From the NCBI RefSeq assembly GCF_056746865.1, contig NZ_CM163382.1: a DNA stretch of 64,000 nucleotides. One strand, 5' to 3'. The notes beneath the pieces are model-generated. The model was not told the origin of the DNA. It did no database searches and saw nothing but the letters and a program-made list of their open reading frames with translations. The translations under genes were made by a program, and so were the position numbers. Shown piece after piece: positions 60,006 through 60,353 of the stretch. Every line of letters begins with the position of its first letter. The stretch's first letter is position 1.

Positions 60006-60353
60006 AATAATCCTTGAATTATATTCCATGAGTTTAACTACAATCGGGTGCTTTCAGACAAAGAACCCCGATAGAGAAAAATAGATTGTTTTGTTAATGA
60101 TGAATGTGAAGATTTACTGAATGTAACATCTGTTCATCACCAAGTGGGATATTGTGCATATTTAAATTTATATATCCACTTAATTCATCTTTAAGTAAAA
60201 CTTAATGTACAAAGCGGGAAAAATATTGTATGTGAGGCGGAAGGTGTTAACGGGGTATATAATATTAATTATGGTTGTAGCTTAGGGAATATATTAATTG
60301 CAATGGGGTAAGGCTATTTTTCGGAATTTATTTATATTCATGAAATCATTAAA

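Follow-up and report, generated by a model that had tools for sequence, protein, structure and literature searches.

A probable H-NS-silenced promoter region without a phase switch in the AT-rich spacer between folK and a Yad-type fimbrial operon of Escherichia coli

The spacer, its neighbors and the operon downstream

We analyzed the spacer between folK and a yadN-like gene for a major fimbrial subunit within a window of 64,000 nucleotides, i.e., the whole stretch of E. coli DNA under consideration here. Both genes read right to left, and the coordinates of these and all other features discussed below are collected in Table 1. The original prediction had placed an AT-rich region at 60030-60353, between folK and yadN, and its identification of the two flanking genes was correct, the second of them being a yadN-like gene in this strain. 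The right edge of that interval is also sound; the left edge is not, the true boundary being 60006. The annotated start of the yadN-like gene is an ATG (protein beginning MSKKLGF...) preceded by AAGGA. Another ATG, upstream at 60029, was considered as the start and rejected, given that no Shine-Dalgarno sequence precedes it and that in K-12 a stop codon follows it in frame.

The AT-richness itself was confirmed: the 324 bp of the interval 60030-60353 have a GC content of 30.6%, compared to a window-wide 51.1%. Just 0.22% of the 324-bp segments in the window have a GC content as low as this, and all of these overlap the spacer, except for a few at the aroP-pdhR spacer near 24,090. The minimum across the window in the 324-bp scan (26.2%) starts at 60075, and the spacer is the most AT-rich stretch of the 64 kb. 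The AT string quoted in support of the prediction was found at about 60164-60210. However, the predicted A/T tracts were not borne out: the spacer contains only five runs of A or T of at least 4 nt, the longest of 5 nt, and is rich in TpA steps instead (0.118 per nt, compared to 0.045 in the window, a 2.6-fold excess). The second most AT-rich stretch of the window lies at about 23970-24460, with a minimum of 30.2% GC per 324 bp; the gene downstream of it is presumably pdhR, in which case this stretch is the aroP-pdhR spacer.

The low GC content extends into folK. The last 66 nt of this gene have 22.7% GC, compared to 51.7% for the rest of it, and the spacer together with the folK tail has 28.7% GC over 415 bp. 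The alignment to K-12 diverges from column 143, at about 60411. Thus, neither the AT-rich island nor the divergent yad cassette begins at the folK stop codon; both begin within folK, 58 nt in. The last ~19 residues of FolK, the product of an essential gene, vary by allele, the K-12 version being ...EMLRQILHTRAFDKLNKW; strain GF131 has lost the folK stop codon, and the annotated product there has 172 aa.

Table 1. Features of the spacer and its surroundings, in coordinates of the window
Feature	Position	Strand	Description or basis
folK	60354-60833	-	right-hand neighbor of the spacer
Allele-variable AT-rich folK 3' end (last 19 codons and stop)	60354-60411	-	GC content; alignment to K-12
folK–yadN-like intergenic region (the spacer)	60006-60353	-	348 bp, 29.9% GC; regulatory region of the Yad-type fimbrial operon
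Candidate zone of Rho-dependent termination of pcnB-folK transcripts	60204-60353	-	first 150 nt after the folK stop
Conserved island CATGAATATAAATAAATTCCGAAAAATA	60315-60342	-	12-39 nt downstream of the folK stop
Hexamer block TTAAGT-N3-ACTTAA-N7-TTAAGT, alternating orientation	60178-60205	-	just upstream of the candidate -35
Candidate sigma-70 promoter	60151-60178	-	-35-like TGGATA (60173-60178), 16-nt spacer, -10-like CACAAT (60151-60156)
Inverted repeat TTGGTGATGAA (60133-60143) / TTCATCATTAA (60094-60104)	60094-60143	-	predicted to form an 11-bp hairpin where the predicted mRNA begins
Second small inverted repeat, 5' UTR (ATCGGGG ... CACCCGAT)	60043-60072	-	partly kept in the window's family, absent in K-12/CFT073
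Shine-Dalgarno AAGGA (60011-60015) and start codon (60003-60005)	60003-60015	-	
yadN-like major fimbrial subunit, 190 aa	59433-60005	-	74-78% identical to YadN of K-12, ST131 and CFT073
Remainder of the six-gene operon	52144-59343	-	RefSeq annotation of the locus in 118UI
Chaperone	58609-59343	-	72-75% identical to its Yad counterpart
Usher	55974-58574	-	74-75% identical to the Yad usher (HtrE)
Two minor subunits	55395-55955 and 54782-55381	-	
yadC-like adhesin, split by IS2	54152-54730 and 52144-52820	-	intact form 46-48% identical to the Yad adhesin
IS2, 1331 bp, with InsC- and InsD-like ORFs	52821-54151		flanks 52816-52820 and 54152-54156

The RefSeq annotation of the locus in strain 118UI gives the order pcnB-folK, fimbrial protein, chaperone, usher, two minor subunits, fimbrial-like adhesin and panB. 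The operon of the window has six genes and lacks yadL, unlike the Yad operon of K-12, CFT073 and EC958. The tip-adhesin gene, which is intact in 118UI and in EAEC 042, is split here after codon 193 of 416 by an IS2 element flanked by a 5-bp target duplication, GAATT; a search of 5426 complete E. coli genomes found the IS2–adhesin junction in none of them. With the adhesin broken in this strain, the operon downstream of the spacer is probably defective, and functional fimbriae are unlikely to be made from it, whatever the promoter does.

The spacer of EAEC 042, a strain of phylogroup D, is 99.7% identical to that of the window, and the same six-gene variant is present there. A 2026 survey by Ellison et al. 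scored strains as Yad-positive at a cut-off of 80% identity (PMC13245861). The usher of the six-gene variant, compared to an ST131 HtrE that served as a stand-in for the EC958 query of the survey, is ~75% identical and would therefore be scored as Yad-negative. A divergent variant, rather than a missing locus, may thus account for part of the Yad absence reported in phylogroup D.

Allelic divergence and the question of a phase switch

The spacer is 100% identical in E. coli 118UI, where the whole locus is identical, too. Across the 5426 complete E. coli genomes that served as our sample, the spacers split into deeply diverged families, namely, K-12, window plus ST131, CFT073 type and O157 type. 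The K-12 family comprises 2946 genomes and the window plus ST131 family 1074, of which 436 have a spacer at least 99% identical to that of the window; the ST131-type spacer is ~84% identical to it. When the spacer of the window is compared to those of K-12 and CFT073, with which it aligns only in islands, 39% of its columns are invariant. The GC content stays at 26-33% in all seven alleles compared, though the sequences barely align. The divergence is shared by the genes downstream: the usher, chaperone and yadN have ~71% DNA identity to K-12 and CFT073, compared to 96% on the folK-dksA side, and the cassette from ~52.5 kb to 60.41 kb is either ~71% identical or unalignable to these two genomes. 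The yad genes have been flagged as horizontally acquired (PMC8894471).

Raised divergence reaches beyond the fimbrial genes on the panB-panC side (50108-52550), where identity to K-12 and CFT073 is 87-90%. The ST131-type spacer has a C-tract, aligned to about 60240-60260 of the window, that varies by strain (CCCCCCCCCACCCC in 2822 and TTTTTCGCCCCCCCACCCC in AR_0104); the allele of the window lacks it. When one genome per species was scanned for the conserved yadN start, only the E. coli representative matched, which precludes cross-species footprinting.

The original prediction had allowed for a small phase-variable element in the spacer, and phase variation is common among E. coli fimbrial operons. 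Under this reading, the spacer would be an invertible segment like fimS, a Dam/Lrp switch like that of pap, or a slipped-strand tract. An inverted repeat that could bound an invertible segment is present, i.e., the perfect 9-bp repeat GAAAAATAG/CTATTTTTC (60076-60084 and 60314-60322) that flanks 229 bp, and there is an imperfect 27-nt inverted repeat as well (60157-60183 and 60247-60273). However, by our own estimate, chance alone would give ~0.8 such 9-bp pairs in a 348-bp sequence of the same composition, and the 9-bp arms are not kept in the 84%-identical ST131 allele; this lack of conservation rules the repeat out as a switch boundary and marks it as a chance occurrence. Furthermore, in all of the 1074 genomes that match the window plus ST131 family, the spacer is present as one collinear piece, with 0 inverted segments. 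This sets the spacer apart from fimS, the type 1 fimbriae switch, which it resembles in being AT-rich, about 300 bp long and located upstream of a major subunit gene, and in its putative promoter: the spacer lacks conserved flanking inverted repeats and adjacent recombinase genes.

The pap switch is likewise an AT-rich fimbrial regulatory region subject to H-NS; however, it has two GATC sites within Lrp-binding sites, whereas there are 0 GATC sites in 60006-60353, compared to 4 per kb in the window, and it is folK that abuts the spacer. Within 9 kb, the annotation of the 118UI locus shows neither a recombinase nor a papI/papB-like gene, the only recombination-related gene within ±9 kb there being rpnC, a nuclease. 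With regard to a slipped-strand mechanism, the spacer contains no homopolymer longer than 5 nt, and the only tandem repeat reported by TRF is a 2.4-copy 8-mer at 60338-60356, by the folK stop. Finally, Yad fimbriae have been stated not to be phase-variable (PMC13245861). The phase-switch reading is thus largely refuted, and we give it hardly any credence.

Silencing by H-NS-family proteins

The spacer occupies the same place as the yadN promoter of K-12, CFT073 and EC958, which also sits between folK and a yadN–chaperone–usher operon and shares the GC content of 26-33%. The original prediction of H-NS silencing is supported by published repression of this promoter in K-12, CFT073 and EC958/ST131. 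In CFT073, ~200 bp upstream of yadN fused to lux were over 100-fold more active in an hns mutant, and the effect was complemented; all yad genes were up in the hns mutants of CFT073 and EC958, in EC958/ST131 by qRT-PCR (PMC13245861). The same paper cites H-NS repression of yad in K-12 (Korea 2010, Larsonneur 2016) and H-NS ChIP-seq over the CFT073 yad locus (PMC13245861). RNA-seq of a K-12 hns mutant gave a logFC of 1.8 for yadN (P = 8e-6), 3.8-4.3 for yadM/K/C, 3.2-4.3 for yadM/K/C/L, and a non-significant 0.46 for folK (PMC8894471). Elsewhere, yad is stated to be H-NS-repressed, SlyA overproduction lifts yadN 2.4-fold, and the yadN row of the table bears the dataset codes G, K and O (PMC5797941). 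The codes G, K and O presumably designate three genome-wide H-NS binding datasets. The spacer of the ST131 allele, whose operon is H-NS-repressed, is 84% identical to that of the window, which was counted in favor of silencing here. The main texts of a BglJ-RcsB paper and of a CFT073 RfaH/H-NS paper do not mention yad.

The allele of the window is represented in published expression counts by that of EAEC 042. We took the raw strand-specific RNA-seq counts for the genes EC042_RS00735-00760 (PMC5861252, Table S1); there is one library per genotype, and the interpretation of the raw counts is ours, not that of the paper. The sense reads of the yadN-like gene number 190 in the wild type, 801 in hha hha2, 802 in hns, 861 in hns2 and 1471 in hns hns2. 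The corresponding numbers for folK, in the same order, are 166, 657, 589, 666 and 161, and those for antisense reads of the yadN-like gene are 259, 758, 1131, 757 and 764. In the hha hha2, hns and hns2 libraries, weakly expressed genes as a whole have a 3-4-fold surplus of reads, on both the sense and the antisense strand, which looks like a library background effect; therefore, only the wild type and hns hns2 are comparable. Between these two, with one library per strain, the yadN-like gene is 7.7-fold up, whereas folK is flat. The sense reads of the chaperone rise from 295 to 1015, those of the usher from 1902 to 5908 and those of the adhesin from 693 to 4334; conversely, the controls pcnB (2998 and 3094) and panB (3227 and 3905) change little. 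In total, the six fimbrial genes are 3.1- to 7.7-fold up, compared to 1.0- to 1.4-fold for folK, pcnB, panB and panC.

In the single hns mutant of 042, there is no clear sense-strand rise of the yadN-like gene. H-NS2 is over-produced in that mutant (PMC5861252), which explains the absence of a rise, and the counts fit silencing by H-NS backed up by H-NS2. Derepression upon loss of H-NS-family silencers is common to the yad alleles of K-12, CFT073 and EC958 and to the variant of the window in 042; in 042, unlike in the other alleles, it takes the loss of both hns and hns2 for it to appear.

Predictors of H-NS binding were applied to the spacer itself. A scan with TCGATAAATT, the high-affinity nucleation motif of H-NS, gave two matches with at most two mismatches (60165-60174 and 60325-60334), compared to 1.2 ± 1.1 in composition-matched shuffles; the density of matches in the spacer is 5 times that of the window, yet equal to that of the shuffles. 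The curvature expected for such a region failed to appear: in a wedge model, 42% of the 348-bp segments of the window are at least as curved as the spacer, and its mean equals the window mean. Local peaks within the spacer occur only at 60081 (22°, the highest), 60215 and 60322. Curvature is not obligatory in H-NS targets. In short, the sequence-based predictors, motif and curvature alike, add nothing beyond base composition. One of the top five curvature peaks of the window (29.7°) is located at ~59993, a short way beyond the spacer, where the yadN-like gene has its start codon and signal-peptide region (AAAACCTAATTTTTTAGAC).

These null results bear on an alternative reading, in which the AT-richness is a by-product of horizontal origin and of the 3' UTR, the promoter is dead or its activator is missing, and H-NS has no direct role. 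This reading is consistent with motif and curvature predictions that are no better than composition, with the weakness of the candidate promoter (see below), with the lack of a clear sense-strand rise in the single hns mutant of 042, and with the fact that the H-NS evidence comes from other strains, its ChIP and reporter data from other alleles. However, a missing motif excess is no argument against binding because H-NS binds AT-rich DNA largely by composition, and the over-production of H-NS2 accounts for the single-mutant result. Moreover, the same gene is 7.7-fold up in 042 hns hns2 while the flanking genes are flat, and H-NS represses three further yad alleles, including one with a spacer 84% identical to that of the window. 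We therefore consider the by-product reading unlikely.

We put at roughly 80% the probability that the spacer is an H-NS-family-silenced promoter region of a Yad-type fimbrial operon, without a phase switch. Under this preferred reading, the AT- and TpA-rich DNA would be coated by H-NS-family proteins, presumably at these very bases, and the coating would hold a weak sigma-70 promoter off in laboratory conditions, with expression to be expected once the silencers are removed or counteracted. The counter-signals could be those published for other yad alleles, i.e., SlyA overproduction, ArcA together with low temperature, and a serum cue; modulation of yad by ArcA, temperature and a serum cue has been reported (PMC13245861). 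The operons elf/ycb, sfm and yeh are similar to yad in being poorly expressed in the laboratory, H-NS-repressed and raised by SlyA overproduction (PMC5797941); they are, however, other loci with unrelated promoter sequences, and the likeness is one of description, not of sequence comparison. It should be noted that H-NS silencing of the yad promoter was already known, and the window adds another allele.

Candidate promoter, conserved islands and the end of folK transcripts

Conservation within the spacer is clustered in islands. There are 20 12-column segments with at least 9 of 12 columns invariant, compared to 2.3 expected, and only 0.05% of shuffles reach 20. The features that the yadN promoter alleles share with the window are the Shine-Dalgarno region, a -10-like TGCAMAAT box, the TTAAGT block, the hairpin arms and the folK-proximal island. 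Almost no variation among the alleles is seen at 60006-60032.

The spacer has about as many promoter-like hexamer pairs as expected (3, compared to 2.7), and the best candidate scores 8/12, i.e., it is weak. Many weak candidates are expected in AT-rich DNA; therefore, only the positionally conserved one was kept. This pair, TGGATA-16-CACAAT, is the only one whose alignment position is shared by all four alleles of the window family, and its -10-like box (TGCACAAT) is located 144-150 nt from the ATG in eight alleles. It falls within the ~200-bp CFT073 fragment that has H-NS-repressed activity. The candidate promoter lies ~145 nt upstream of the ATG, and the predicted start of transcription is near 60144, which would give a leader of ~139 nt that would have the conserved hairpin at its 5' end and a strong ribosome-binding site at its 3' end. 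The supplements of Term-seq and start-site studies yielded no entries for folK or yadN. Under the preferred reading, the yadN-proximal ~200 nt would thus be the promoter portion of the spacer, with this pair as the best candidate and the hexamer block upstream of it.

The hexamer block is a candidate transcription-factor site or UP-like element. Of 1000 dinucleotide shuffles, 10 contain three copies of TTAAGT/ACTTAA within 28 bp, and the block is conserved across alleles. In K-12 and CFT073, the distance from the block to the -10-like box is exactly 10 bp greater than in the window, which corresponds to about one helical turn. Among three deeply diverged alleles, 20 of the 28 columns of the folK-proximal island do not vary; this island includes TAAATAAATT (60325-60334), which agrees with the H-NS high-affinity motif at 8/10 positions.

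The 11-bp hairpin is part of the predicted MFE fold; its energy is unremarkable, with a fold z-score of only -0.83. Pairing is retained in 84% of cells across eight alleles, compared to 16-62% in slid controls, with one compensatory change only, G-C to C-G. The loop contains a direct repeat, GTTAC-N5-GTAAA (60113-60127), conserved as GTWAN-N5-GTAAA, that recalls response-regulator sites and resembles a CpxR box. An ArcA box was considered, given that ArcA is reported to act on yad, and was not adopted: the spacing of the conserved repeat is 10 bp, whereas the canonical one is 11 bp. A literature search for yadN with CpxR, ArcA, OmpR or RcsB gave nothing usable. The second, small inverted repeat in the 5' UTR is probably not significant.

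The islands could be accounted for if the spacer encoded an unannotated small RNA or small protein. The spacer does contain ORFs at 60094-60159 on the minus strand (21 aa) and at 60205-60285 (26 aa) and 60298-60375 (25 aa) on the plus strand; the minus-strand ORF starts within the TGCACAAT box and stops within CATCATTAA, both of which are conserved, and the conserved hairpin would suit an RNA product. However, no Shine-Dalgarno sequence precedes the 21-aa ORF, of which K-12 and CFT073 retain only 10-11 codons, and the plus-strand ORFs span indel-rich alignment columns; these ORFs were rejected as not conserved. In addition, an Rfam scan of 59000-61500 found no family at E ≤ 1, the spacer has no terminator-like site, and nothing is annotated here in the RefSeq records of K-12, 118UI, 042 and ST131. 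We regard a small RNA or small protein as very improbable.

Another, more tentative interpretation, compatible with the promoter reading that we prefer, is that the hexamer block, the leader hairpin with its repeat and the folK-proximal island are binding sites of a specific anti-silencing factor. We consider this conceivable, though rather doubtful; an OmpR/PhoB-type response regulator is one possibility for such a factor. If true, the factor could mediate the induction of Yad by serum or host cues that was left unexplained (PMC13245861). The conserved islands provide concrete targets in the search for the factor that lifts H-NS silencing in serum.

The folK-proximal part of the spacer has a different character. 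The first 150 nt after the folK stop have the signature of a candidate Rho-dependent terminator, being C-rich, G-poor and unstructured and having no intrinsic terminator. On the transcript strand, there are 36 C and 10 G (C/G ratio 3.6). The folK-proximal RNA has an MFE of -10 kcal/mol for 171 nt (z = +1.05), i.e., it folds more weakly than its shuffles, and the sites detected by a scan for intrinsic terminators all lie in folK, outside the spacer. Most likely, then, Rho would end the pcnB-folK transcripts within these ~150 nt and insulate the fimbrial genes from them. The C/G ratio is 2.4-4.0 in all seven alleles compared, despite their divergence.
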